Positions 5,566-28,605 of a DNA stretch of 64,000 nt are shown here, piece after piece. How positions within the stretch are numbered: position 1 is the stretch's first letter; each line of letters starts with the position of its first letter. A program made the translations under genes and the position numbers. A model generated the notes under the pieces. That model saw only the letters and a program-made list of their open reading frames with translations, did no database searches and had not been told where the DNA came from. Source of the DNA: Candidatus Multivoradales bacterium (lineage in GTDB: Bacteria; Acidobacteriota; Thermoanaerobaculia; Multivoradales; J023); assembly GCA_965250305.1 (NCBI GenBank), contig CBDFNS010000023.1, positions 182,623 through 246,622 on the forward strand, in the 5' to 3' direction.

Positions 5566-6699
5566 TTATTGCGCTAGATTCTTTCTCCTTCGCCAAGCGT
5601 CGAGCGAAGCGACTCCAGCCGTTTCTTGGTAGGCACTTACGTCAATACCCGAGATCTTCTGGAACAGGGATGGAGACCAGCCAAGCTCATTTGCGATGTC
5701 AAGCGGCGATTCCCCAAGGTATGCCTCCAACCGAGCAATTGCTCCAGTAAGGAGTTCAGGAATTTCCGCAGCAGGCTCGTTTGGTTCCGGTATTTTGCCG
5801 TGGAGCCACCCCTTGGCGCTCATGTATTTGTACGAACGGCGGTACTCCGAGGGGCCGATCAGATCAAGGTCAAAGGCTCGGCGGATGATCGCCGGAGCAC
5901 TGACTTTCCAAGATCGCTTGAGTTCGAAGATTGCAGCCCAGCTCGGCTTCCTCATGGCGATTCTGTAGTCTTCGGAGAATGGCTGCCGCGGCAGAAGAAA
6001 TGCACTCGCGAATCGGTTCGCCTGACCTTCCGTTTCCTTGTCGCCCGTGTTCTGGCCGGTGTGAATCACCAGGTGGCCAAGCTCATGAGCCGCGTCGAAC
6101 CTCGATCGAGAAGCGCTCCCCTTGAAGCTGTTCAGGACAACTACACTCGTTCTTCCTGCCCGCGAGAAGGCGTCGATCTTCTTGGTGTCCTCCGCCAGCT
6201 TGCTGACTACGACACCGCCATTCTCAAGCACGCGGATCGTGTTTGAGATTGGGCCACTACCTAGCCCCCAGTGTTCTCGAGAGGCCTTGGCCGCTTTCTC
6301 GATCTCCTCGTAGGAGCACGCCTGGATCGCTGGTACCGAATCCTCGGGAAAATCAATCTTCCGCTTCAGCGTTTCGACCAGCATCCCAAGCAATGAGCCT
6401 GTGGCAAACACCTTGCTCTTGAGCTTTTTCGGCGTAGTGCTTCGGTGCCGCAGGTGGTACCCACGCCCAGAGTCATCGTGTTCAACACGCCTCGGATCAC
6501 GAAAGAACGACACCTCGACCTCTAAAGTCTCAGCTAAGGCACTAGCCAGGAGCCCCGAGGCTTCACGGTTCCCCCGCTCGATTTGGGACAGGGTTGGCGC
6601 AGAGATGGCAACCTTCTCTCCCAGCATCTTGAGACTCATTCCGCTTGCCATCCGAGCCAACCTAATTCGCTGCCCTACTGAGCTAGCTTCCATCTCCAT
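5566..6699 (-). CDS. Fusion protein: XRE-family HTH + ImmA/IrrE (COG2856, Peptidase_M78) zinc metallopeptidase domain
   Basis: N-terminal HTH (VGQRIRLARMASGMSLKMLGEKVAISAPTLSQIERG). The C-terminal domain carries HELGHLVIH (HExxH). ATG at 6699 (MEMEASS) has an AAGGGG RBS. Local GC is about 56% against about 67% in the flanks. Confidence 0.8.
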   Translation of the reverse strand: MEMEASSVGQRIRLARMASGMSLKMLGEKVAISAPTLSQIERGNREASGLLASALAETLEVEVSFFRDPRRVEHDDSGRGYHLRHRSTTPKKLKSKVFATGSLLGMLVETLKRKIDFPEDSVPAIQACSYEEIEKAAKASREHWGLGSGPISNTIRVLENGGVVVSKLAEDTKKIDAFSRAGRTSVVVLNSFKGSASRSRFDAAHELGHLVIHTGQNTGDKETEGQANRFASAFLLPRQPFSEDYRIAMRKPSWAAIFELKRSWKVSAPAIIRRAFDLDLIGPSEYRRSYKYMSAKGWLHGKIPEPNEPAAEIPELLTGAIARLEAYLGESPLDIANELGWSPSLFQKISGIDVSAYQETAGVASLDAWRRRKNLAQ

Positions 6700-7321
6700 G
6701 ATCCCCTTGATTGTTCCGCGTGCCCTGGACAGGGAATTGCAGCGGATGGGGAAGCTCGACAGCCTCCCTCCGGGGACGGATGGGGGCGACGGCTTCAACC
6801 TCGTCTAGCGGGATCGGCCACGCGTTGTGCGGCCGGCCTTCCTCGTCAAACTGCACGACCGTAACAGATTCGGCACGGCCAAGTGCGTCCGTCTCAACCG
6901 CTAGCCGAAACGACATCTCAAGGTCCGGGTCCTGAGCGAGGTCAAGGCACAATTGCTGCGCCCTGAGCTCCGGGAACCTTCGATTCAGGGTCCGGTTCGT
7001 CGAATCGGCAGGACCACCTTTGTAGAACCGGAAGGGAACGCCAGCGACGCTAAAGACAAATTTGAGCCCCGCATCCTCGATGATGGAGAGCCACCCTTCG
7101 TACGGCTCTTCGGCAACGGCAGTGGCTATCGCGAAACAGACTCGGGAATAGGCTCGACAACCAAGGCTCCATGAATTGTCGCCACGGCTTGATTCATGAA
7201 GAGAAGATGCTTCGAGGCGAGCCTGGACAATCAGATTGCCGACGAGTCTCAATCGCTCCGACGTAAGCCCAGGATGGATTTCCCATGGTTCTCTTGGTTG
7301 CATGCGCGTCATCTTAATCAT
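6683..7321 (-). CDS. Hypothetical protein, promoter-proximal partner of the XRE-ImmA gene
   Basis: ORF 6683..7339, with the start placed at ATG 7321 (MIKMTRMQ); 7312 and 7303 are alternatives. It overlaps the downstream gene start by about 17 nt. It has no recognisable domain and shares the low GC of that gene. Confidence 0.45.
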   Translation of the reverse strand: MIKMTRMQPREPWEIHPGLTSERLRLVGNLIVQARLEASSLHESSRGDNSWSLGCRAYSRVCFAIATAVAEEPYEGWLSIIEDAGLKFVFSVAGVPFRFYKGGPADSTNRTLNRRFPELRAQQLCLDLAQDPDLEMSFRLAVETDALGRAESVTVVQFDEEGRPHNAWPIPLDEVEAVAPIRPRREAVELPHPLQFPVQGTRNNQGDHGDGS

Positions 7322-7554
7322 TTGTCTCGGATTTTGCAATAGTTCTGTTTCGTCAATCTGTTTTGGTTTTCCGGAAACGTGATTGTTTCGTCATGTGAGA
7401 CTCGTTTAGAGTTCAATGTCTCTCTCTCGCCGCAGTAATCACGTGGGCGCCGACAGTATCCATAGGCGCGTGCGCACGCGCCGTGGGCCACCGTAGCGCG
7501 TTGATGGCTTGTCCGTGGCTTGTCCGTGGCCGGGCGACGCGCTACGGTGGCTTC

Positions 7555-11045: not shown

Positions 11046-12422
11046 GGTACGGGAGTTATGCTCGAATCTTGTGTATGAGGAGCAAATCAGGTGGCGTATC
11101 CTGAATCGGATCTCCAAGTTCGATTCACCCTCAACAACGAGGAGATACGCCATGACCGAGAATACAATAGTCCCGATTCGACAGCCGGAAGCCCCCCGAG
11201 ATGCTCTGACGGCGGTGCTTCGGGTTGGTGCCCGCCAGCTACTTGCCGAAGCGATCGAGTCTGAGGTCGGCTCGTTCCTCGCCGAGTACCGCCAGGAACG
11301 CGACGAGATTGGTCGCCAGCGCCTCGTACGCAACGGCTATCTGCCGGAGCGTGAGATCCAAACAGGCCTTGGTGGGGTGCCGGTAAGAGTGCCTCGTGTC
11401 CGCGATCGGGTGGCAACGAAGGGCGATGGTTTGCAGTTCCGCTCGAAGCTCGTGCCACCCTACCTTCGTCGCGCCAAGAGCGTGGAGGAGCTTCTGCCGT
11501 GGCTGTACCTTCGAGGGCTCTCCACGGGCGACTTCTCTGAAGCCCTTGGTGCTCTTCTGGGTCCGGATGCTCCCGGCCTGTCAGCGCCGACGGTCAGCCG
11601 ACTGAAGAAGGTTTGGACGAAGGACTACGAAGGTTGGCGGGTTCGCAATTTCACGGACAAGCGGTACGTGTACGTGTGGGCTGACGCCATCCATTGCAAG
11701 GTGCGCCTCGACGACGCCAAGCTGTGCTTGCTGGTGCTGATCGGAGCTACAGACGACGGCAAGAAGGAGCTGATCGCCGTCGAGGATGGGTATCGTGAGA
11801 GCGCGGCTTCGTGGACGGAAATGCTGCGCGGCCTCGAAGCCCGTGGTCTCTCCATCGAGCCTGAACTGGCGGTCGGTGACGGAGCGCTCGGTTTCTGGAA
11901 GGCGCTTGCTCAGGTCTGGGGCAACACGAAGAAACAGCGTTGTTGGGTACACAAGACGGGAAACGTCCTGAACTACCTGCCGAAATCGGTGCAGCCAAAG
12001 GCCAAGCAAGCGCTTCATGAAATCTGGATGGCCGAGGAAGCCTTCGACGCCTTCGTGACCATCTACGAGGCCAAGTATCCGAAGGCGACCGCTTGCCTGG
12101 AAAAGGACCGAATCGAGCTGCTCGCCTTCTACGACTTCCCGGCCGAACACTGGGCTCACCTGCGAACGACAAATCCAATCGAATCGACCTTCGCAACAGT
12201 CAGGCTGAGGACCGCCAAGACTCGTGGTTGCCTCTCTCGGCAAACGATGCTGACCATGGTCTTCAAGCTCTGCCAGGCTGCCGAGAAACGATGGCGAAGA
12301 CTACATGGTTACAAGCTGCTCGCTGACGTCATCAGAGGCGTCAAGTTTGTCGATGGAATCCGAGAAGACAGGATCGCCGCCTGATACTCCGTACACAACA
12401 ATTGACCATAGCTCTCGGTACG
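11046..12422 (+). mobile_element. IS256-family insertion sequence with about 35-bp imperfect terminal inverted repeats
   Basis: Left end ggtacgggagttatgctcgaatcttgtgtatgagg (11046-11080) matches the reverse complement of the right end ctccgtacacaacaattgaccatagctctcggtac (12387-12421) at about 27/35 positions. No clear 8-bp target duplication was seen. Confidence 0.65.
11152..12384 (+). CDS. IS256-family (mutator-type) transposase
   Basis: 410 aa from the ATG at 11152 (RBS GGAGATACGCC ATG) and typical IS256 Tnp architecture. The ORF-track start at 10939 is an artefactual upstream extension. Confidence 0.88.
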   Translation: MTENTIVPIRQPEAPRDALTAVLRVGARQLLAEAIESEVGSFLAEYRQERDEIGRQRLVRNGYLPEREIQTGLGGVPVRVPRVRDRVATKGDGLQFRSKLVPPYLRRAKSVEELLPWLYLRGLSTGDFSEALGALLGPDAPGLSAPTVSRLKKVWTKDYEGWRVRNFTDKRYVYVWADAIHCKVRLDDAKLCLLVLIGATDDGKKELIAVEDGYRESAASWTEMLRGLEARGLSIEPELAVGDGALGFWKALAQVWGNTKKQRCWVHKTGNVLNYLPKSVQPKAKQALHEIWMAEEAFDAFVTIYEAKYPKATACLEKDRIELLAFYDFPAEHWAHLRTTNPIESTFATVRLRTAKTRGCLSRQTMLTMVFKLCQAAEKRWRRLHGYKLLADVIRGVKFVDGIREDRIAA

Positions 12423-12685
12423 GTCGCTTAAGCCGCTCGGCCTCCGGGGCCTTGACTCGTCATTGGCATGGCGGTATGTTCCCCGGAGTACACTCTTGCC
12501 TGGCAGCGCAGCTCAATGACCACGGTGGCGTAAGACCGTTAAGGGTGCCTATCGGGCTTCGTAGAAGTTTGTAGAATAGAACGTAAAGTTCACCAAGCCC
12601 AACGTTCGCATTCACCTGTATGGCCGAGTAGAAGTACCTCGAAGTATGCAGAACTCAGACAACGATCAGTCGGGGGTCATTCTCG

Positions 12686-14353
12686 ATGTCGGCACAAATG
12701 CAAGCGCCTCTGAAAGTTAGCCTCTCAAAGCCCGTAGGGACACTTGCTGCAGTTGGTGGTGGCTTGCTTATTGCGATCTCTCTTCTCGGTTTTTCATGCG
12801 CGTACTTTGTAGCTAGAGCCGTGCACCGGGCGCTACTTGAGGAAGGTGGCGAGCTGCAGGGGAGAGAATTTGGTGCAACCCTGCTACTTGGGCTAGGTGG
12901 GATCGCCTTGTTGGGATTCTTTGTTGTAGGCCTCGGGGAATGCATAGCAGGTGTCAGGAGACTATTACGTCCAGAACTCGAAGTGCCTGGCCCTGAACCG
13001 TTTCGCGACTATCAAGGGGAAGTGACCTCCGCTCTTGCCGAAGGAATACTAAAGGTGTACGGAAGTCTGTCTGGGCGGCTTCGACTACTGTTCGGCAAGA
13101 ACATTGTCTCTCTTCCGCCTGTGTCCCACAAAATCGTTGCGCGAAATGGGAACTCCATCTTTCGGCGGGTCTTTACCATTCCGACTCTAGTCTTCGTTCT
13201 CGCGATAATGTATTTTCAAGGTGCGGGCCTCGCGCTTATGTTCCCCTTCGTGCTGCTGGTAGTTGCGGGATTCGTTCAAACAGCAGTCGAATACTGCTTC
13301 TCGAAGGCGCTGGTTGCAGAACGCCCGGCCGAGGCCAACGTGGACCACGCGTCCCGACACTACAAAGGGTTTGGGCACCCGACTCACCTGTTTTCACGGT
13401 TGCCGATATCCGCGAGCCAGCTCGCGCTTCCAGGGTATCCGAATAGAGTCTACAAGTGGGGTGAAACGGAAAAGCCCGGAGTGGTAAGGGACACTGGCGA
13501 GTTTTCAGCCACGCTCTTTATTGAGCGCCAGCCTCAGGTATTGGATACTGAAAGCTCTGCGGCCGGCAAATGGCTTGTTGCGACTGGCTGGGCCTGGAGG
13601 TTACTCTCTGCCGCTCTCTTGGTCTTCGTCTTCACGCCTGCGGGAGGCTGGGTCACAACGTCGGGCCCGGGTACCGTCCTCCTTGTTGCAGCAGTATCAC
13701 GTCTATTCCATAAAGGAAGTGTTTACAAACGGCAGGGCGTTAGCCTGCTTGATTCGCTTCGCTTCAGTTCTATCGGGGCTCTCCTCAACGTCCAGGGAGA
13801 GATCTCCCGAGCTAATGTAAAGATTGGCGGAAATTCTGTCGATTCCGTTGGCTCTGAGACCTTAGCGACAAGGTCGAACTTCACGGTGCAGCTGTCGGCA
13901 GCCGAACTCCTAAGCGAAGCAGTTGCCGTAGATGAATCGCGGCATCTACTCCAGTTGCGGAGATCTGATGCGAGCGAGCAATGGACTAGTGAGATCCTAG
14001 AAGGAATCGAGGCGCTCAGAGAGGAACGAGTTAGGCTGGTCGGTATCGAAACGAGTTCGTCTGAGTTCGTAGAGATGGCGGAGGTGAATCGGCAGCTACT
14101 GGCTGAAAGGGCTGCTTTGCTGAGTACGCCTCGGGCACCGGTCGTAGTGAGATCAGAACCTCCTTCGAGTCCAAGACTGCCGGAAATCTCGGATTCAGGC
14201 AAGAACCAAGACGGTTTAGATGAGCCGGCTGCAGGCTTCAAGGATTGTCCCGATTGTGCGGAGCGCATTCGGGAAGGCGCGCGGAAGTGCCGATTTTGCG
14301 GGATTAGATTCGATGCTGCGGTGGCAGGCAGTCCGGCAAAGGGAGTAGATTGA
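12686..14353 (+). CDS. Multi-pass membrane protein with a C-terminal CPxC...CxxC zinc ribbon; function unknown
   Basis: At least 4 predicted TM segments in the N-terminal half and a coiled-coil-like middle. The C-terminus has CPDCAERIREGARKCRFCG. GC is about 50-52%, far below the flanks, and the gene is adjacent to the IS256. Confidence 0.6.
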   Translation: MSAQMQAPLKVSLSKPVGTLAAVGGGLLIAISLLGFSCAYFVARAVHRALLEEGGELQGREFGATLLLGLGGIALLGFFVVGLGECIAGVRRLLRPELEVPGPEPFRDYQGEVTSALAEGILKVYGSLSGRLRLLFGKNIVSLPPVSHKIVARNGNSIFRRVFTIPTLVFVLAIMYFQGAGLALMFPFVLLVVAGFVQTAVEYCFSKALVAERPAEANVDHASRHYKGFGHPTHLFSRLPISASQLALPGYPNRVYKWGETEKPGVVRDTGEFSATLFIERQPQVLDTESSAAGKWLVATGWAWRLLSAALLVFVFTPAGGWVTTSGPGTVLLVAAVSRLFHKGSVYKRQGVSLLDSLRFSSIGALLNVQGEISRANVKIGGNSVDSVGSETLATRSNFTVQLSAAELLSEAVAVDESRHLLQLRRSDASEQWTSEILEGIEALREERVRLVGIETSSSEFVEMAEVNRQLLAERAALLSTPRAPVVVRSEPPSSPRLPEISDSGKNQDGLDEPAAGFKDCPDCAERIREGARKCRFCGIRFDAAVAGSPAKGVD

Positions 14354-14369
14354 GGTGCTCCGAGGCCGA

Positions 14370-15941
14370 TCAATCGCCCGCGAGTGGCAAGGCGTAGCAA
14401 GCGGCCTGCCGGTGGTTGCGCACCAGGAGGTGGCGGCCGGCGAGGGCGGGGGTGTTCCATGTGCGCCCTTCGATGGCTTGGAACCGACCGAGCTCGTTGT
14501 ACGTCTTGGGCGTGGCTTCCACCAACGCGACTTCGCCCTTTTCGCTCAGGATCACCAACAGATCGTCAACCAATAGAGTCTGGCCGTGGCCGTAGCGGCC
14601 ACGTTTCCATGCCCGTTCGCCGGTCTCGACCGAGACACTGACCAGGATGCCGTCGTCGAGGCCATAGAGGTGGTCGTTGCGGTGGACGACTTGGGTGAAC
14701 TTGGCCTTTAGATTGGCGTTGGCCCAACGCTGAATCGCCCGCAAGTCACCATCGGCCCCCGGCGCAATTTCGAACAGGGCGCTTCCCACGCCATAGCCGC
14801 TGGAAACGAAGAGTTGCGAGCCGGGCAGCACGACGGGCTGGGAGGTACGCTCGGTTGGCGGCCAGCTGGCCTGCCACAGCGCCCTGCCTTGCAGGTCATG
14901 GCCGCTCAACCCACCGCCGTGGAACACGACGATTTGGTCGATGCCCGCGAGCGTCGCGCGCAGGGGTGAGCTGTAGGCCGCGGCCAACTCGCCGCCCGAC
15001 CACACCGGTTCACCGGTGGTCCGATCGTAGGCCGTGAGGCCACGGTTGCGGGCCTCACCACCTGCCAAGATCACGATGGTGTCGTCGACGATCAGCGGTG
15101 AGGCGCTGACGCCGTAGTCAGGCCGTCGCGCATCGGCGTCGGTGAGCACGTTGCGCGACCAGGAGACCTGGCCGGTCGCAAGGTCGAGACGGTTGAGGAT
15201 GCCTGTTGCGCCGAGGCTGTAGACCGCGCCATCTGCGATGGTCGGCGTCGCGCGCGGGCCATCGCCGCCCAACACGTCTTCGTGACGAGCCTCGTCGCCG
15301 TGCGACCAGAGCGGCTCACCGGTCTCGAGATCGTAGGCGACAACGGTCTCCGCGCTACCGCGCTGCTCGTGGGTCACCGCGATGCCACCGACTACCGCGA
15401 AACCGGCGTTGCCAGCGCCAACATCGCGGCGCCACAGCAGCTGCGGTGGGTTGGCCTGCCAGTCGCGCGCCAGACGGATGCCATCCACGGTCGCGTTCCG
15501 GTTGGCGCCGAGGAACTGTGGAAAGTCACCTTCGCCCGGTCGTGACGATGCGGCGCGTGCTGCGTGGCCCGTACCAGCAACGGGCTCGAGGGCCTCATCC
15601 ACTTCCGGCGACCACTTCCACGACAGCTTCGGCACGACATCGCCCGAGAAGCTGCGTATTTCGAGGGTCAACGCACCGAGGATTCCGAGACCCGCGAGCG
15701 TGCCCAGGACCAGGAGCTTGGTGATTCCCCGCAAGCGCGAGAGAAACAGGAACCAGATGAACAACAGGAGGGTGGATATGGCCGCAACGGACATCGTTGT
15801 CAGCACCCGTTCCTGGCGGCTGCTGGCGGGCATCCACGCCCAGATCCAAATCACGGTGGCACCGGTCAAAGCGCCGACCAGCAGGGCGGGCCACCAGCGA
15901 ATAGCGCGATGCGATGTTTGTGTCACGGGTGGATGCGTCAT
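14370..15941 (-). CDS. PQQ-like (BamB-type) beta-propeller repeat protein with an N-terminal TM anchor
   Basis: Repeated ...GxVYALDLATGE.LWS.. style blades (AYDLETGEPLWS, NRLDLATGQVSWS, AYDRTTGEPVWS). ATG at 15941 (MTHPP). Confidence 0.75.
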   Translation of the reverse strand: MTHPPVTQTSHRAIRWWPALLVGALTGATVIWIWAWMPASSRQERVLTTMSVAAISTLLLFIWFLFLSRLRGITKLLVLGTLAGLGILGALTLEIRSFSGDVVPKLSWKWSPEVDEALEPVAGTGHAARAASSRPGEGDFPQFLGANRNATVDGIRLARDWQANPPQLLWRRDVGAGNAGFAVVGGIAVTHEQRGSAETVVAYDLETGEPLWSHGDEARHEDVLGGDGPRATPTIADGAVYSLGATGILNRLDLATGQVSWSRNVLTDADARRPDYGVSASPLIVDDTIVILAGGEARNRGLTAYDRTTGEPVWSGGELAAAYSSPLRATLAGIDQIVVFHGGGLSGHDLQGRALWQASWPPTERTSQPVVLPGSQLFVSSGYGVGSALFEIAPGADGDLRAIQRWANANLKAKFTQVVHRNDHLYGLDDGILVSVSVETGERAWKRGRYGHGQTLLVDDLLVILSEKGEVALVEATPKTYNELGRFQAIEGRTWNTPALAGRHLLVRNHRQAACYALPLAGD

Positions 15942-16287
15942 TGGTTGGTGTTGGAGGGCGCCGAACACGCCAACGCGTATTGTAGTCGCCCGCGTCGAAC
16001 ATCGAACGGTGTTTTCGGTTACTGCTTCATGCTGGGAACCAGGCCAGCGTCGACCAGGCCTGCTCCAGCCACTGTGCAGCGAGCCGATGCCCGCTCGCGG
16101 TGCCCAATCGCGGCCATTTTGTCAGATTGTTGGCGCGGTGCCCGTCGTGTACGACAGACATGCGTACGAAAAAGTAGACGCTTGTCCGGGGGGTACTGCG
16201 ACCGCGGTCAGCGACGTGGCCCGGCCTGATCGCACCGTGGGCGGGATTTGCTGCAACTGGCCCCACAGCCAGGAGGTGTGCAGGTTA

Positions 16288-22935: not shown

Positions 22936-25881
22936 GTGGCGGATGTCCCTCAAGAAGGGGAAGCTGAGTTGGTTCTAGTTCCGTTCAGAGCCCGTGCGAG
23001 AACCGTAGACCATCTCGGCCGGGAGCAGATTGCTGATTGCCCGACTGCAATCAGCGAGCTTTGGAAGAATGCCTACGATGCATATGCCAAGTCGGTAGGG
23101 CTACACATCTTCGATGGCGAACTACCCGTTGCTGCCGTCGTTGACGACGGGCACGGCATGTCTGCCGAGGAATTCGTTGATCGGTGGCTCATGCTCGGGA
23201 CCGAGGCCAAAGCCGGTAAGAATGACGTACCCGTCGAGGATAGGAACGGGCTTCCTCAGCGCCCACGCCAGGGCCAGAAGGGTATCGGCCGTCTATCCGT
23301 CGCTTACCTGGGTCCTACTGTGCTGGTTCTTACCAAGCGGAGAGAGCTGCCTTTCGTTGCAGCGCTTATTGACTGGAGGCTGTTTCAGAATCCGTATCTC
23401 GCGCTCGATGATGTACAGGTGCCGCTTGAGGAGTTTTCAGACACTGTTGACTTCCCCGGAATCCTCAGTAAGCTCTTCGATGGGCTGGTCGACAATGTGT
23501 GGGGCGGTGCGGGAGACCCGGAGCGACAGGCCCGGCTCGAATCAGCCTGGCAGCGATTCTCTAACGATGAGATAGGCAGCGGAGAGTGCTCAGCGGACTG
23601 CATCGCCGGACTCGCGCTAGCAGGAGTCCTCGACGACAGGCACCTTTCCGCCTGGCCGGCCTGGAGCGGAGAGAAAGAAATGGGTACGGCGCTTTTTGTG
23701 TTCGACGTCGGACACGAGCTTCGTGTTTGGATCGACCCGAGTTTTGCGGATGAAGATCCGGAGATCAAGGAAACTCGCGACAACCTTCGCCTTACGTTGA
23801 CCGGATTCATCGATCCATATTCCGATCAAAATCAGGAATTTAGGTATGAGGCCATCGCCCATCGTGGCGCTTGCCGGCATGAGGTCGTGTCCTCCGCGGA
23901 GATGTTCGACATTCACGACCTACGAGATCTTGAACACGTTGTCGAGGGGCGGTTCGATCAAGCAGGACTGTTCAAGGGGCGTGTCCGTGCTTGGGGTCAG
24001 GACCTCGGTGAGGTGACGGTTGCGCCTTCGCGGCCGCCACCCGCTCAGGGTAGTGCTTTTGTCGGTGAATTCGACATCTGTTTCGGCACTTTCGAGCAAG
24101 AGGTTCAGAGAAGCACGCACACCGCCGACGTGATCGCACGTCTTAAGGAACGAGCCCTGCGATTCAGTGGCCTCGCTGTCTATCGCAATGGGATTCGTGT
24201 GCAACCCTACGGCCGCCCACAGGCGGATTTTTTCAGAATGGACTTGCGAAGGCAGATGCACGCAGGACGTGAATTCTGGGCCCATCGCCGCACTTTCGGC
24301 CGGGTCGCGATCACGCAGGAGGAGAACTCACGCCTGCGGGATAAAGCCGGCCGAGAAGGCATCATTGACAATCGCGCCGCACGTGAGTTCCGACTTCTCG
24401 TCGTCGACCTGCTGAAGACCTTGGCTCGTCGGTATTACGGCTCCGACTCCGATGTCAGAGAGGCGAACATCGAAGAAGCCAAGAGGCGGTACGAGCAAGC
24501 GAAAGCAGCCGAGAAGCAAGCCGGAGAACGTCGATTGAAAGCCTTGCGCAAAGCACTGACGACACAAGGTGAGGATCTGGAGGCTTGCCTTGCGGACGTC
24601 AGAGCTGTTCTCAGTGATTTGAAGAGGTCGCTGGATCCGCAAGCCTTCGTGGACCTGAACGATCGGCTGGAGGAACTCCGCAGGACACGCACGAAACTGG
24701 CATTGCCGCCACGCCCGCGAAAGCTGTCAAACTCGCTTGAGGATCGGTACAGGACGTATCGCGATTCCTTTGCGGAGTTGACGGCAACCCTGGAGCGGGC
24801 GAGCACCCGGTGGTCGACAAATGTTGAGGCCGATCCGCGGATGTCGCACGCCGAGGTCGCCAACAGCGCACTCGCCCGGCACCAGAAGTTCATCACGGAT
24901 GCTACCTCTCGCTGGAAGCGATCCATCCGCGCTCTGCTCAAGGTAGAGCAGACTCGTTGGTCAGATCGAGTCGACAAGGACAACACGCGCTACTACGCGC
25001 TCGCTTCTCCCTTGGTCAAGGACGTTGCCGAAGATCGACTGATTCTTGGGCATGTCCTTTCCGAAATGGAGGGGCTGCGGGAGCGCATCTACGCTGAGCT
25101 GGCACGAGAGTACGAAGCGTATCTCCGGGCGCTTGGTGCCCTAGGAGAGGGTATCGATATCGACGAGGCCCTTGCCTGGGCCATCGATGAACGGATGGAT
25201 CTTCAGAACAAGGCCCAACAGTGGCAAGACCTCGCACAACTCGGAATCACCGTCGAGATCATCGGCCACGAGCTCAACGACTCGGCGGCACAGGTTTCCA
25301 GGAATTTGCTTCGGTTGCCGAGTTCTACTAAGAAAACGGAAGCCTACAAACTCGCGAAGGACGGCTTTCAGGCTCTCGTTCATCGCCTAAAGTTCTTAGC
25401 TCCGCTTAGGCTTTCCGGCTCCCACATGCGGGAGACGATCTCCGGAAAGGACATCGAGGAATACCTGCGGAGTTTCTTCAAGGGGCAGATCGCCCACCGC
25501 CGCGTTGATTTTTCTGCCACTCCGGAGTTTAAGGCCGTCACCGTGGTCGACTACCCGCACCGCTTGTACCCCGTCTTCGTGAACCTGGTGAACAACGCAT
25601 TGTATTGGGTGACCTTCGATACCCAGCGCAAGATCTTGCTTGATCGAATCGGAAACCGCGTGTTTGTTGCTGATTCGGGGCCAGGGGTGGATCCCGACGA
25701 CATCCCGCAACTGTTTCAGATGTTCTTTACCCGTAAGGTTGGCGGCCACGGCGTAGGCCTATTCCTGTCACGGGTCAGCCTTGAACAGGGTCGCCATCGT
25801 ATTCGCTACGCTGATCCCGACGAGGGTATCTTGCCGGGCGCAAACTTCATAATTGAGTTTCAGGATCTTCAGAATGAGTGA
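22936..25881 (+). CDS. 981-aa dual-GHKL protein: N-terminal Bergerat-fold ATPase (MORC/MutL-like) + coiled-coil + C-terminal histidine-kinase catalytic core
   Basis: N-terminus has ISELWKNAYDAYA (N-box ExxxNxxDA), VDDGHGMS (G1) and QKGIGRLS (G2). C-terminus has the H-box ITVEIIGHELNDSAAQ, N-box VFVNLVNNALYW, VADSGPGVDPDD, the F-box QLFQMFFT and GGHGVGLFLS. GTG start. GC is about 56% in an island flanked by 67% GC DNA. Confidence 0.75.
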   Translation: MADVPQEGEAELVLVPFRARARTVDHLGREQIADCPTAISELWKNAYDAYAKSVGLHIFDGELPVAAVVDDGHGMSAEEFVDRWLMLGTEAKAGKNDVPVEDRNGLPQRPRQGQKGIGRLSVAYLGPTVLVLTKRRELPFVAALIDWRLFQNPYLALDDVQVPLEEFSDTVDFPGILSKLFDGLVDNVWGGAGDPERQARLESAWQRFSNDEIGSGECSADCIAGLALAGVLDDRHLSAWPAWSGEKEMGTALFVFDVGHELRVWIDPSFADEDPEIKETRDNLRLTLTGFIDPYSDQNQEFRYEAIAHRGACRHEVVSSAEMFDIHDLRDLEHVVEGRFDQAGLFKGRVRAWGQDLGEVTVAPSRPPPAQGSAFVGEFDICFGTFEQEVQRSTHTADVIARLKERALRFSGLAVYRNGIRVQPYGRPQADFFRMDLRRQMHAGREFWAHRRTFGRVAITQEENSRLRDKAGREGIIDNRAAREFRLLVVDLLKTLARRYYGSDSDVREANIEEAKRRYEQAKAAEKQAGERRLKALRKALTTQGEDLEACLADVRAVLSDLKRSLDPQAFVDLNDRLEELRRTRTKLALPPRPRKLSNSLEDRYRTYRDSFAELTATLERASTRWSTNVEADPRMSHAEVANSALARHQKFITDATSRWKRSIRALLKVEQTRWSDRVDKDNTRYYALASPLVKDVAEDRLILGHVLSEMEGLRERIYAELAREYEAYLRALGALGEGIDIDEALAWAIDERMDLQNKAQQWQDLAQLGITVEIIGHELNDSAAQVSRNLLRLPSSTKKTEAYKLAKDGFQALVHRLKFLAPLRLSGSHMRETISGKDIEEYLRSFFKGQIAHRRVDFSATPEFKAVTVVDYPHRLYPVFVNLVNNALYWVTFDTQRKILLDRIGNRVFVADSGPGVDPDDIPQLFQMFFTRKVGGHGVGLFLSRVSLEQGRHRIRYADPDEGILPGANFIIEFQDLQNE

Positions 25882-27544
25882 CGCCGGGGGGCACGTTGGT
25901 CCATGTGGCCCGGTAGAGGCCTACGTCCTGCCGATTCGGTCCGTGCTATTCATTGACGACCAGTTTCCAACGTTCGGACGATCCCCCCCACATGAGGTAA
26001 AAGAGACCGTAAGAGCACGTGCCCTCTGGCAAGTGTGCACGGAACGCGGCTGGCTTTGCGATGTAGACAACTCGCCGGATTGGAATACTGCGGAAAAACA
26101 ACGCCGCCTTGCGGCGTGCGATCTTCTCGTCCTTGACTTTCACTTGGACGGCGACAATAGCGCACCGGCTCTGATCATCATCCAACAGCTCGCTTTGAGT
26201 ACCACGCCAAATATGGTCGTGGTTTACACCCGCGACGAGGACCTGGACGATGTCCTTTTCAAGGCAGCGAGTTGGGCAAGGGGTGTGCGAGACGACGCTT
26301 TGGCGATCGAGATGACCGAAGATCTCGAGGAGCTCGAAGAACTCGTGGAGTGGTCAACCCTGGATCTTGCCGAGTACCTTTCGAACGGTACCGTTGGGGC
26401 GTCGTCTTTAAATATCGCGTGCGAAAACGCAAGGCTTCAACGCCCGGCAGAATCGAGTTGCGCTGCTCTGGTTGAGCGCCTGCTTCGGCGCGCATACAAA
26501 GCCGAGCCGACTGACGAGATCAGAAGGATCGAGAGGCTTGGGCACGCGGAGCACAAATGGTTTCAGTGTGGCAACTTGTTTCTGGCAGTAATCGGAAAGC
26601 CTGCGGAACAGGAAGCTGCTTCGGAGGCGGAGTCGCTCCTTGGCGGTCTTGAGGGCGCGGTTCGAGATTGGAAGCCTTCGTGGCTCGCGTGTGACATAGC
26701 AAGCTCGAGGCGGCAGGTGGAGATTGGTGCCTTCCGTGACGATTCTCGCCTGCTGGAGGAGCCGCTGAAGCGAGGTCTATTAGGCTATATCTCGGGTTCA
26801 GAGAGCGAATCTGAGCGTTTGCGCCGGTCAAAGGAAGTCGCTAATAGCCTTCTGTCAAAGAGGTTCGATCGCGCGGCGGCGGAACTCGGCCAGCGCCTTC
26901 TCACCAGATCGACATCTGGCACGAACGAATATCTCGATGAGACTGCAACACTCCATTTGAACACCTATCTGTGCTCGGAGAGCTTTAGTCACCATCATAT
27001 CCATGTGGGAACGATCTTCGCCGAAGTTGGGACAGAGACCAAGTACTGGCTCTGCGTGACACCCGCATGCGACATGGTGCCCAGAAAGCCCGATAAAGTG
27101 TTGAATCCTTGGGCAGCGCGTCTCTATCCTTTCCGGCCGATGCTGGCGCTCCGGCTTACTCGGATCTCCGACGAGTCGAAGATCCGAAGGGCCCTCAAAG
27201 AAGCGCACCTTGGTCGTAACCTGTTCTTCTGGGACCCAGACCGAGAACCTCATGATCCGATCGTAGCCGCCTGCTTTAACCGACGAACTGCTGACCCGAA
27301 TCCGATGCTTGAACAGATGATCGCCGTCGATCAAGCTCGCGTCTCGGAGAGAGGTACGCTTCGGCTGCGCCGTTGCATCAATCGAACGAAGGCGAATGGC
27401 GAGGCCGAGATCGCCCTGCACGAGGTTGAGTGTTTCCCGGTGGCGCAGCTTCGGCCACCCTATTCAGAACGAGTCGTTCATGTAGTGGGAGGACATGTCT
27501 CTCGCATTGGCGTGGACTTCGTCCGGTTCAGGCCCTCAAGCTGA
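25874..27544 (+). CDS. Receiver (REC)-domain protein with an unknown approximately 430-aa output domain
   Basis: ATG at 25874 overlaps the upstream stop (ATGAGTGA). VLFIDDQF ... DLLVLDFHLDGDN ... MVVVYTRDE ... FKAASW reproduce the REC acid pocket, phospho-Asp, Thr and Lys positions. The remainder has no recognisable domain. Confidence 0.7.
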   Translation: MSDAGGHVGPCGPVEAYVLPIRSVLFIDDQFPTFGRSPPHEVKETVRARALWQVCTERGWLCDVDNSPDWNTAEKQRRLAACDLLVLDFHLDGDNSAPALIIIQQLALSTTPNMVVVYTRDEDLDDVLFKAASWARGVRDDALAIEMTEDLEELEELVEWSTLDLAEYLSNGTVGASSLNIACENARLQRPAESSCAALVERLLRRAYKAEPTDEIRRIERLGHAEHKWFQCGNLFLAVIGKPAEQEAASEAESLLGGLEGAVRDWKPSWLACDIASSRRQVEIGAFRDDSRLLEEPLKRGLLGYISGSESESERLRRSKEVANSLLSKRFDRAAAELGQRLLTRSTSGTNEYLDETATLHLNTYLCSESFSHHHIHVGTIFAEVGTETKYWLCVTPACDMVPRKPDKVLNPWAARLYPFRPMLALRLTRISDESKIRRALKEAHLGRNLFFWDPDREPHDPIVAACFNRRTADPNPMLEQMIAVDQARVSERGTLRLRRCINRTKANGEAEIALHEVECFPVAQLRPPYSERVVHVVGGHVSRIGVDFVRFRPSS

Positions 27545-28605
27545 TGGCGGGAGAGCGAAGTTAGGGCTTTTGCCACGGCCAAGGCGTGACGCCTAGCTAG
27601 CTCGGGGGGGAATGCGTTCCCGATCATTGTAGCCACTGGGTACTTTCCTCGTCTAATTGGAAAGCTGTACTTTAGTGGGAATGTTTGCAGCAGAGCTGCT
27701 TCACGAGGCGTCACACAACGATCCTGCTCTGGATGAAGGAAGCGACCCTTGGACGGGTTAACGAAGCCCCCGGTTATCGTGGGTGACACCTCGTCCCAGC
27801 GCATTCTTCCGTAGACGTCGTAGAATCCATCGAAGTCCTTGTGGCATTCAAGCTCGTGCCGAGGGCCAAGGTCCTTCCGGCTGCCTCCATCATGAGGAAT
27901 TTTTTGGATCATCTCCGCAATCTCGGGGCGTCGAGCCTCGGAAACGTCGTGAACGGCATCCTTGCTCGTACCCGGCCTCGACAGTTTTCCGATAGCCTGC
28001 CGTACCGTCCCGCGTTTCTTTTTGGCGACCGCAATCGGCATCGCAACTTGCGCCCCGCGAACCGCTAGCATGATGAGCCGCCGCCGCCGCTGCGGGACAC
28101 CAAAGTCCGCAGCATTGTGCACCTCATCAGTTGCCGTGTAACCAAGGTTGCGGATCGATCGGAGAAGTTCTAGATAACGGCTGTCACCGGCGAGGCCTGG
28201 AACGTTCTCGAGCATGAGCGCCCGCGGCAACAGCTCGCGGACCAGCCGAGCATACTCTTGAACCAAGTCGTTACGCGGGTCGTCAGCTGCTTCGCCTCTG
28301 TTCAGAGTCCTCATGCGCGAGAATCCCTGACATGGCGGGCACCCTGCTAGAAGATCGAGTTGCCCTCGCTTGATTTCAAGATCGTCGAGAATCGTCCGGC
28401 CCGTGAGTTTACGGATATCCTGTCGATAGATCTGAGCGACATCGGCATGGTTGGCCTCGTAGGCCTCTAGTGCTCCCGGCTCACACTCAACAGCCGCCAT
28501 CACCCGGAAACCTGCGAGTTTCAGACCGGTCGTTAAGCCGCCGCAGCCGGAGAAAAGGTCGACTGCAGTCAGCGTGGCTGGACCTTCTGCTAAAGACGTA
28601 TCCAT
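27478..28605 (-). CDS. dcm: DNA (cytosine-5)-methyltransferase
   Basis: DLFSGCGG (motif I), GCPPCQGFS (the catalytic PC motif) and ENVPGL (motif VI). GGAGAC RBS. Convergent with the REC gene and overlapping it by 67 nt. Confidence 0.92.
   Translation of the reverse strand: MDTSLAEGPATLTAVDLFSGCGGLTTGLKLAGFRVMAAVECEPGALEAYEANHADVAQIYRQDIRKLTGRTILDDLEIKRGQLDLLAGCPPCQGFSRMRTLNRGEAADDPRNDLVQEYARLVRELLPRALMLENVPGLAGDSRYLELLRSIRNLGYTATDEVHNAADFGVPQRRRRLIMLAVRGAQVAMPIAVAKKKRGTVRQAIGKLSRPGTSKDAVHDVSEARRPEIAEMIQKIPHDGGSRKDLGPRHELECHKDFDGFYDVYGRMRWDEVSPTITGGFVNPSKGRFLHPEQDRCVTPREAALLQTFPLKYSFPIRRGKYPVATMIGNAFPPELARRHALAVAKALTSLSRHQLEGLNRTKSTPMRETCPPTT

Follow-up and report, generated by a model that had tools for sequence, protein, structure and literature searches.

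What kind of gene makes up the region of lowest GC (guanine plus cytosine) content in a 64,000-nucleotide stretch of DNA from Candidatus Multivoradales bacterium (Acidobacteriota, contig CBDFNS010000023.1), and does it belong to a system of anti-phage defence or genetic conflict? We refer to this whole 64-kb stretch as the window. An earlier note, made from the sequence alone, had marked positions 12430 to 14353 as a cargo gene for a membrane protein with a terminal zinc ribbon, of a kind typical of small abortive-infection or other defence effectors. The gene studied here, referred to as the target, is the following.

12686..14353, + strand: open reading frame (ORF) of 555 amino acids (aa) with an ATG start

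12575..12685, + strand: conserved 5' region, from alignment with the homolog loci L006 (Gemmatimonadota) and L001 (Thermoanaerobaculia)

The target is the sole long ORF in the marked interval, and a public protein collection lists its exact 555-aa sequence (P0001) as a gene called on a single 580-kb NCBI/ENA contig. One intact ORF ending at 14353 had been claimed, and this was borne out; the claimed start at 12430 was not, as the frame is closed upstream of 12632 and 12430 lies close to the right end (12421) of the neighbouring insertion sequence (IS). The GC content is 55.3% for the ORF, 55.2% for 12430..14353 and 61.8% for the window. The lowest-GC segment of 1,668 nucleotides (nt) in all 64 kb begins at 12557 (54.3%), and the GC content at third codon positions (GC3) of the target, 54.5%, is the lowest among 19 window genes checked, the remaining 18 of which span 60 to 80% (78.6% for the convergent PQQ-like neighbour). 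The gene is thus the compositional minimum of the window, as had been noted, but the value of 50 to 52% that was given for it is too low, and dips to 51 to 52% are confined to single 300-nt windows. Comparison among the target and two homologs that are 74 to 80% identical gave a ratio of nonsynonymous to synonymous substitution rates (dN/dS) of 0.19 to 0.20, indicating purifying selection. These data show that the target is a real, intact gene under purifying selection; a spurious ORF is ruled out by the dN/dS and by the existence of a family of full-length relatives. A GGGGG run resembling a Shine-Dalgarno sequence lies 9 to 14 nt ahead of the ATG, and the conserved 5' region may represent the gene's own promoter and 5' untranslated region. 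An Rfam scan of 12300..14600, which includes this region, detected no RNA element at E <= 1.

The architecture of the protein was predicted with AlphaFold2 in two runs. The earlier model had a predicted local distance difference test score (pLDDT) of 71, and the later one, on 83 sequences, reached a mean pLDDT of 89.7 and a predicted template modelling score (pTM) of 0.80. Together with hydropathy and alignment, they divide the coding sequence into these predicted parts (TM, transmembrane).

12728..12967, + strand: TM hairpin 1, helices aa 15-52 and 59-94 (model pLDDT 95-98; hydropathy)

12968..13117, + strand: cytoplasmic loop A, aa 95-144, with a strand at 97-100 and short helices (model and alignment)

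13118..13312, + strand: TM hairpin 2, helices aa 145-177 and 182-209, joined by an outer loop of 4 residues (hydropathy and model)

13313..13555, + strand: cytoplasmic domain B, aa 210-290, beta-alpha-beta-beta-beta (model and alignment)

13556..13753, + strand: TM hairpin 3, helices aa 291-325 and 327-356 (hydropathy and model)

13754..13960, + strand: long beta hairpin and one strand, aa 358-380, 390-412 and 419-425 (model and alignment)

13967..14125, + strand: helix-loop-helix, aa 428-446 and 459-480 (19 and 22 residues), with an LREERV motif and N468

14126..14233, + strand: disordered linker rich in Pro, Ser and Glu, aa 481-516 (pLDDT 45-60; alignment gaps)

14234..14320, + strand: C-terminal zinc ribbon KDCPDCAERIREGARKCRFCGIRF, with C521, C524, C535 and C538 (Pfam UPF0547)

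Hydropathy and both AlphaFold2 models agree on six TM helices arranged as three hairpins, which is compatible with the "at least four" counted previously. The outer loops of the hairpins are only 4 to 6 residues long and lack Lys and Arg, that of hairpin 1 having 6 residues. In the models, one side of the membrane holds the N-terminus, the two segments between hairpins and the last 200 residues, and a single beta-rich domain is predicted to form there from the N-terminus together with the stretch after each hairpin (strands 9-12, 97-100, 220-229, 254-264, 270-280, 284-286 and 419-425, and the hairpin 358-380/390-412). Because the charge distribution follows the positive-inside rule and this side carries a Cys4 ribbon, we assigned the conserved side to the cytoplasm. 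The target is therefore predicted to be a stand-alone inner-membrane protein whose conserved sequence is all cytoplasmic. Structure prediction had been proposed as a check on the earlier reading, and the model it returned is a confident one of six TM helices, a beta domain and a ribbon. The same model did away with the long helical or coiled-coil middle once proposed for the protein: the helix-loop-helix is C-terminal and preceded by a beta strand, and the piece quoted as coiled coil, LLQLRRS, is that strand (419-425). An internal triplication of a "beta / TM hairpin / beta" unit was considered and rejected, since hhalign comparison of the three alignment thirds gave probabilities of at most 8%.

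Conservation over 83 diverse relatives peaks in the ribbon, the beta-hairpin region (aa 357-425) and domain B. Conservation is lowest in the TM helices and outer loops, the helices being conserved only in hydrophobicity and in a few glycines; conserved small residues fall on one helix face (G82 and G89, both in hairpin 1, as well as G301 and G344). Residues E280 and R419 are invariant in the 83 sequences, and N253, R254, S362, S397, E411 and N468 are each at least 90% conserved. The beta-hairpin region is the most conserved part of the body, with a mean of 2.07 bits per column and 20 of its 69 columns at or above 2.5 bits; it holds S362, G371, G381, the motif RSNFT (396-400), E411 and R419. 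Domain B contains the motif HYKGFGHPTHLFSRLP (aa 225-240), N253-R254 and FIERQP, which includes E280, and G230, P232 and P283 are also among its conserved residues. Loop A carries a conserved P103 and the motif LFGKN..LPP..IVARNG. In the close subfamily HYKGFGHPTHLFSRLP is almost fixed, and the 15-residue motif YKGFGHPTHLFSRLP in the same region is nearly invariant; in the wider family H231 and H234 vary. An HxxH metal site was accordingly rejected as a feature of the family and is not its mechanism, because these two histidines are not conserved in the broad alignment.

The ribbon reads CPDC-x10-CRFC (aa 521-538), with cysteine spacing x2 / x10 / x2. A Cys4 ribbon at the C-terminus had been correctly recognized in the earlier note, which gave the central spacing as x12. 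The cysteines are at least 90% conserved among the 83 relatives, and 71 of these match the UPF0547 ribbon at E <= 0.001 (best 2.8e-11). The target's own match to UPF0547 (PF10571) has an E value of 4.6e-05 and a score of 23.9 bits, under the 29-bit gathering threshold. The CPxC...CxxCG Cys4 pattern in the C-terminal 26 residues is shared with UPF0547, Zn_ribbon_3 (PF13248) and Zn_Ribbon_1 (PF13240), but these are generic 26-residue modules without an assigned function, and the other ~516 residues of the target, by which the family is defined, have no match at all. The linker that precedes the ribbon varies in length across the family, up to ~250 aa (in relatives P0099 and P0128), and P0128 has two ribbons. 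Nucleotide homology with close relatives stops at codons 543 to 548, right after the ribbon, and the final 7 to 12 codons of the target show no relationship to the corresponding codons in its closest homologs.

How widespread is this protein? A word-indexed search of 5.8 billion proteins retrieved only 11 sequences, and the same type of search with the broad family alignment added nothing beyond the known close relatives. When 1.84 billion cluster representatives were searched exhaustively with a profile, 243 clusters matched at E <= 1e-10 and 106 did so at E <= 1e-30. Almost all of these are 500 to 620 aa long and collinear over their full length, matching positions ~15 to 545, and full-length collinearity, the cytoplasmic motifs (G230-x-P232, N253-R254, E280-x-x-P283, S362, G371, G381, S397, E411, R419 and N468) and the C-terminal ribbon identify them as one family. 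Named members come from Acidobacteriota, including Thermoanaerobaculia, from Gemmatimonadota, from Anaerolineae (Chloroflexota) and from the cultured alphaproteobacterium Pelagibacterium halotolerans, whose protein (WP_014129733.1; CP053086, 2,877,892-2,879,667) is annotated just as "zinc ribbon domain-containing protein". Close relatives were present in 4 of 185,579 species-representative genomes, in a scan that used subfamily motifs and hence undercounts distant members. The 90% cluster of one homolog (P0021) also holds many fragments of 43 to 44 aa, one of them seen on 36 contigs; these are probably contig-end pieces of the same gene from short metagenome assemblies.

The earlier note could name no family for the protein, and our library searches agree. 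In the target and in the 83 relatives, Pfam, NCBIfam, PADLOC and PHROGs matched the ribbon alone, and PDB sequence profiles gave no match. Foldseek, run on the earlier model of pLDDT 71, gave a best E value of 0.055 with a TM-score of 0.12 and thus no match among solved structures. Literature searches (zinc ribbon, transmembrane, defence, Pfam accessions) found no description of the family. Judged from these profile searches, the family is rare and unannotated, its body being covered by no Pfam, NCBIfam, PADLOC or PHROG model, and the predicted fold is unmatched among solved structures, a comparison made with solved structures only and with the earlier model.

The distribution of closely similar copies suggests how the gene travels. 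The two homologs nearest to the target, at 74% and 80% identity, come from metagenome-assembled genomes (MAGs) of Thermoanaerobaculia and Gemmatimonadota, and nucleotide similarity to them (77 to 81%) is limited to the ORF and ~70 to 150 nt upstream, blastn identity to L006 beginning at 12614. Nothing else in the window resembles the flanks of these two homologs or those of any other homolog locus. The copies at 74 to 80% identity (L006, Gemmatimonadota MAG; L007, Thermoanaerobaculia MAG) reflect either a recent inter-phylum transfer or a binning error of short contigs. Both in the window and at 5 of 8 other homolog loci, the gene has a lower GC content than its flanks. Atypical composition, a rare family and 74 to 80% identical copies without shared flanks all uphold the earlier description of the gene as foreign. 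That its homologs might turn out to be widespread core membrane proteins with conserved synteny had been named as the outcome that would overturn this description; the family was found to be rare and to have no shared flanks, gene order being kept solely among three near-identical Anaerolineaceae contigs. Taken together, the sequence comparisons clearly point to an accessory gene that passes horizontally from one lineage to another as a lone unit, together with its own 5' region. Two copies are broken in frame: one from Gemmatimonadota (L004/L006, 54..1675) shifts frame near codon 110, with tblastn pieces at 54-377 and 380-1654, and one on a 508-kb Acidobacteriota MAG contig (L009, 10001..11591) shifts near codon 205. 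Pseudogenes or errors of assembly could account for these breaks.

We then asked whether the target is carried by the IS256 element beside it. The flanking features are as follows.

~11047..12421 (~1375 bp), + strand: IS256-family insertion sequence, with inverted repeats found by local alignment of its ends

11152..12384, + strand: IS256 transposase, 410 aa, an exact match to a called protein

14370..15968, - strand: convergent gene for a PQQ-like beta-propeller protein (Pfam PF13360, 3.5e-25)

The transposase matches Pfam PF00872 (4.9e-56) and NCBIfam NF033543 (3.9e-90), so that the IS256 previously placed upstream of the target is indeed there. Its terminal inverted repeats are imperfect, ~55 nt with gaps (11047-11103 and 12369-12421). 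No target-site duplication of 6 to 9 nt was found around the element, which may point to IS-mediated rearrangement instead of simple insertion. That the target is a passenger of this element, or part of a composite transposon, is suggested by the transposase immediately upstream on the same strand, and the missing duplication is compatible with it if a rearrangement took place. However, the right inverted repeat stops at 12421, 265 bp before the target ATG; neither a second copy of the IS nor another repeat of the region was found within the window; and homologs elsewhere adjoin IS3, IS91 or no IS, never IS256. Because the ORF lies outside the inverted repeats, the target is a neighbour of the IS256 element and not its passenger, and the passenger reading is essentially excluded. 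The term cargo therefore holds in the sense of a foreign gene of no nameable family, and fails in the sense of cargo of the IS256. On the other side, the stop codons of the target and the PQQ-like gene are only 16 nt apart (14354..14369), and no terminator-like hairpin was found between them. The PQQ-like protein has more than 2800 matches at E <= 1e-20 in the word-indexed search, compared with 11 for the target, and its best relative is 61% identical. The downstream "core gene" that had been described is thus present as a convergent gene, though it is shown to be core only insofar as its family is a very common one.

The neighbourhoods of homologs were analysed at 14 independent loci, a small sample in which several contigs are short. 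In the window, the target adjoins the IS256 element, and a pair resembling the Rosmer system lies ~5.3 kb upstream.

5566..7339, - strand: Rosmer-type pair, GC 57-59% (PADLOC RmrA 2.4e-74, RmrT 9.3e-12)

At the Gemmatimonadota locus L004 (2669..5961), the homolog is accompanied by an IS3 transposase, then HEPN_LA2681 and, after that, a DUF3644 protein matching PDC-S19, a candidate system in PADLOC (1e-124); a DUF4160/DUF2442 pair is also present. An integrase, an IS91 transposase and McrBC-like genes are neighbours at L016, and at L021 a type III CRISPR Cas10 gene lies 5 kb off. Known or candidate defence genes thus occur within ~6 kb at ~4 of the 14 loci (the window, L004, L016 and L021), or at 6 if a Uma2/PDC-S03 gene (L011) and a PIN_10/DUF433 toxin-antitoxin pair (L012) are counted. 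At L005 there is a convergent CHAT protease, with an extracytoplasmic function (ECF) sigma factor and zf-HC2 also near; counting a CHAT protease along with the toxin-antitoxin pair likewise brings the number of loci to 6. No partner gene recurs beside the target across lineages in the loci examined, which suggests that the protein acts alone or with unlinked partners. By context, then, the association of the family with defence is suggestive. A survey of homologs and their neighbourhoods with PADLOC had been proposed as a check, and its outcome is mixed: no model matches the protein, defence genes lie near the 4 to 6 loci just listed, and several other loci look ordinary.

Considering its architecture, its rarity and mobility, and the conflict or mobile genes at several loci, we hypothesized that the target acts by itself as a membrane sensor-effector in genetic conflict or anti-phage defence, a tentative reading that is plausible but not established. 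The tethered zinc ribbon, or the face of the beta domain rich in Arg, Ser, Asn and Glu, or both, would bind a cytoplasmic trigger, which could be a nucleic acid, a protein of a phage or mobile element, or a small ligand bearing phosphate. The beta domain, which in the model clamps the hairpins directly, would relay binding to the glycine-containing and poorly conserved TM helices, and these might then rearrange or oligomerize so that the membrane is compromised. A one-gene system of this kind is consistent with the lack of a conserved partner gene. We regard as doubtful the more far-reaching version, in which this single gene would amount to an undescribed immune or conflict module whose membrane fold is new, one that uses a ribbon on a flexible tether to detect an invader molecule and hairpins that switch to a membrane-breaching state, and that spreads among Acidobacteriota, Gemmatimonadota, Chloroflexota and Alphaproteobacteria with its own promoter.

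Several observations weigh against a role in conflict. The target has no match in PADLOC-DB 2.0.0 at E <= 1, and the 83 relatives gave just two PADLOC matches, both at chance level (E 0.003 and 0.009). Searches by tblastn of 72,556 plasmids and 50,697 phages found no homolog, and none was found among IMG/VR viral contigs. Defence proximity in about one-third of loci is under the majority usually needed to call a family defence associated, and ~8 of the 14 loci look ordinary: the gene of P. halotolerans lies between glyQ and lemA/DUF2207, the three Anaerolineaceae contigs have identical rubrerythrin/epimerase neighbours, L009 is near a Mn catalase/DUF892 gene and sigma-70, L010 is near genes for a major facilitator superfamily protein, a diacylglycerol (DAG) kinase and an acyltransferase, and the neighbourhoods of L001, L003 and L013 hold no relevant genes. 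The histidines of the subfamily motif, H231 and H234, are not conserved family-wide. In addition, pore formation, toxicity and oligomerization of the target are hypothetical properties. The earlier proposal of an abortive-infection or defence effector is accordingly neither confirmed nor refuted, the absence of any PADLOC match speaking against it and the nearby defence genes being suggestive.

The ordinary loci lend themselves to another explanation, in which the ribbon captures a cytoplasmic protein, DNA or RNA and the hairpins are a mere anchor, so that the protein would be a non-lethal tethering or regulatory scaffold, for instance an accessory in envelope or oxidative stress. TM helices conserved in hydrophobicity alone, with no conserved polar residues, suit an anchor, and the highly variable linker and the two ribbons of P0128 suit a binding module cast like a fishing line. 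Stress-type neighbours are found (rubrerythrin, Mn catalase/DUF892 with sigma-70, DJ-1/PfpI in one ordinary locus, the ECF sigma factor with zf-HC2, and LemA/DUF2207), and Bacillus subtilis YdjG offers a precedent as a membrane zinc-ribbon protein in a stress network (PMC9239133). However, these neighbours are common genes that differ at each locus, and no partner or regulator gene recurs in the loci examined. Neither six helices nor the strongly conserved beta domain of 200 residues that is clamped to them would be needed for an anchor, and a patchy distribution driven by horizontal gene transfer, with atypical GC, would be unusual for a regulatory housekeeping component. We consider the scaffold credible, if on the unlikely side.

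The same beta domain could instead control a conduit. In a ligand-gated channel, transporter or lipid-handling protein, the three hairpins would form a homo-oligomer, and the cluster R254/R396/R419/S362/S397/N253/N468/E280/E411 would be the binding site for a ligand carrying phosphate or for the head group of a lipid. The placement of the cytoplasmic domain directly on the helices in the model, the small residues on one helix face and the lipid-metabolism genes at L010 (DAG kinase, acyltransferase) are in keeping with this. Yet there are no conserved polar residues within the membrane, the ribbon would have no obvious role, and a general homeostatic channel would be expected in a family much less rare and patchy than this one; we think such a function unlikely. 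Strict conservation of E280 and R419, together with six residues at 90% or above and the near-invariance of YKGFGHPTHLFSRLP in the close subfamily, could alternatively mark a membrane-bound enzyme with its active site in the beta domain, for which E280, R419 and the H-P-T-H metal site of the subfamily would be the candidates. The histidines of that site vary across the family, no similar enzyme family exists in Pfam, NCBIfam or PDB, no enzyme fold appears among the structural matches, and the invariant Glu-Arg pair may be a simple structural salt bridge; an enzyme is in our judgement improbable.

Comparison with known systems bears on the sensor-effector reading as well. Among membrane-spanning effectors of abortive infection or defence signalling, we take Cap15, PycTM, Cam1 and RexB to be the relevant comparison. 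To our knowledge, three hairpins with an interleaved beta domain and a tethered ribbon are not a feature of any of these or of KwaA. The likeness of the target to the four, and to KwaA of Kiwa (PMC11785009), is one of outline only, that is, several TM helices with a cytoplasmic sensing part. They also share a patchy accessory distribution and frequent siting near mobile or defence genes. Unlike them, the target has no PADLOC similarity, no structural match and no conserved cyclase, CRISPR or partner gene.

Zinc ribbons on membrane proteins are known from other settings. LetA functions together with LetB, a partner with an MCE domain, and the ribbons of LetA are part of its TM modules, not of a C-terminal linker. 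PqiA and LetA are, like the target, inner-membrane proteins of multiple helices with cytoplasmic Cys4 zinc ribbons (PMC13017536), but a Pfam search at E <= 0.1 does not place the target in their family, and it has no recurring partner gene. YdjG of B. subtilis, whose gene lies within the pspA-ydjGHI operon, sits in the membrane, carries a cytoplasmic zinc ribbon and has ties to a membrane-stress network (PMC9239133). The target has no sequence match to YdjG, whose ribbon is of the TF_Zn_Ribbon family, unlike that of the target, and whose setting is a psp operon; no pspA or band-7 neighbour was found at any of the 14 loci.

The target is one of three separate lower-GC patches in the window, at 5 to 8 kb, 12.4 to 14.3 kb (the target) and 22.9 to 28.6 kb. 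In the first, the RmrA-like protein of the Rosmer-type pair has 410 aa with HTH_3 and Peptidase_M78 domains, and the overlapping RmrT-like ORF (6683..7339) encodes 218 aa. The third (22936..28605, GC 56 to 58%) encodes a 981-aa protein with HATPase_c_3, HEF_HK (PF19191) and HATPase_c domains, an overlapping 563-aa Response_reg_2 (PF19192) protein and then a convergent C-5 cytosine methylase (PADLOC DruM/MTase_II, 7e-82). From its domain content, this block looks like a conflict or restriction-type module.

If the conflict reading is true, the target would represent a new family of one-gene membrane sensor-effectors with a fold absent from solved structures, from phyla (Acidobacteriota, Gemmatimonadota and Chloroflexota) that are almost without experimental defence biology. 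Regardless of its role, a family of at least 243 clusters whose body is without any model is a clean target for annotation. The confident structural model offers a basis for mutating E280, R419 and the four cysteines, and a cultured carrier, P. halotolerans, makes the question testable.

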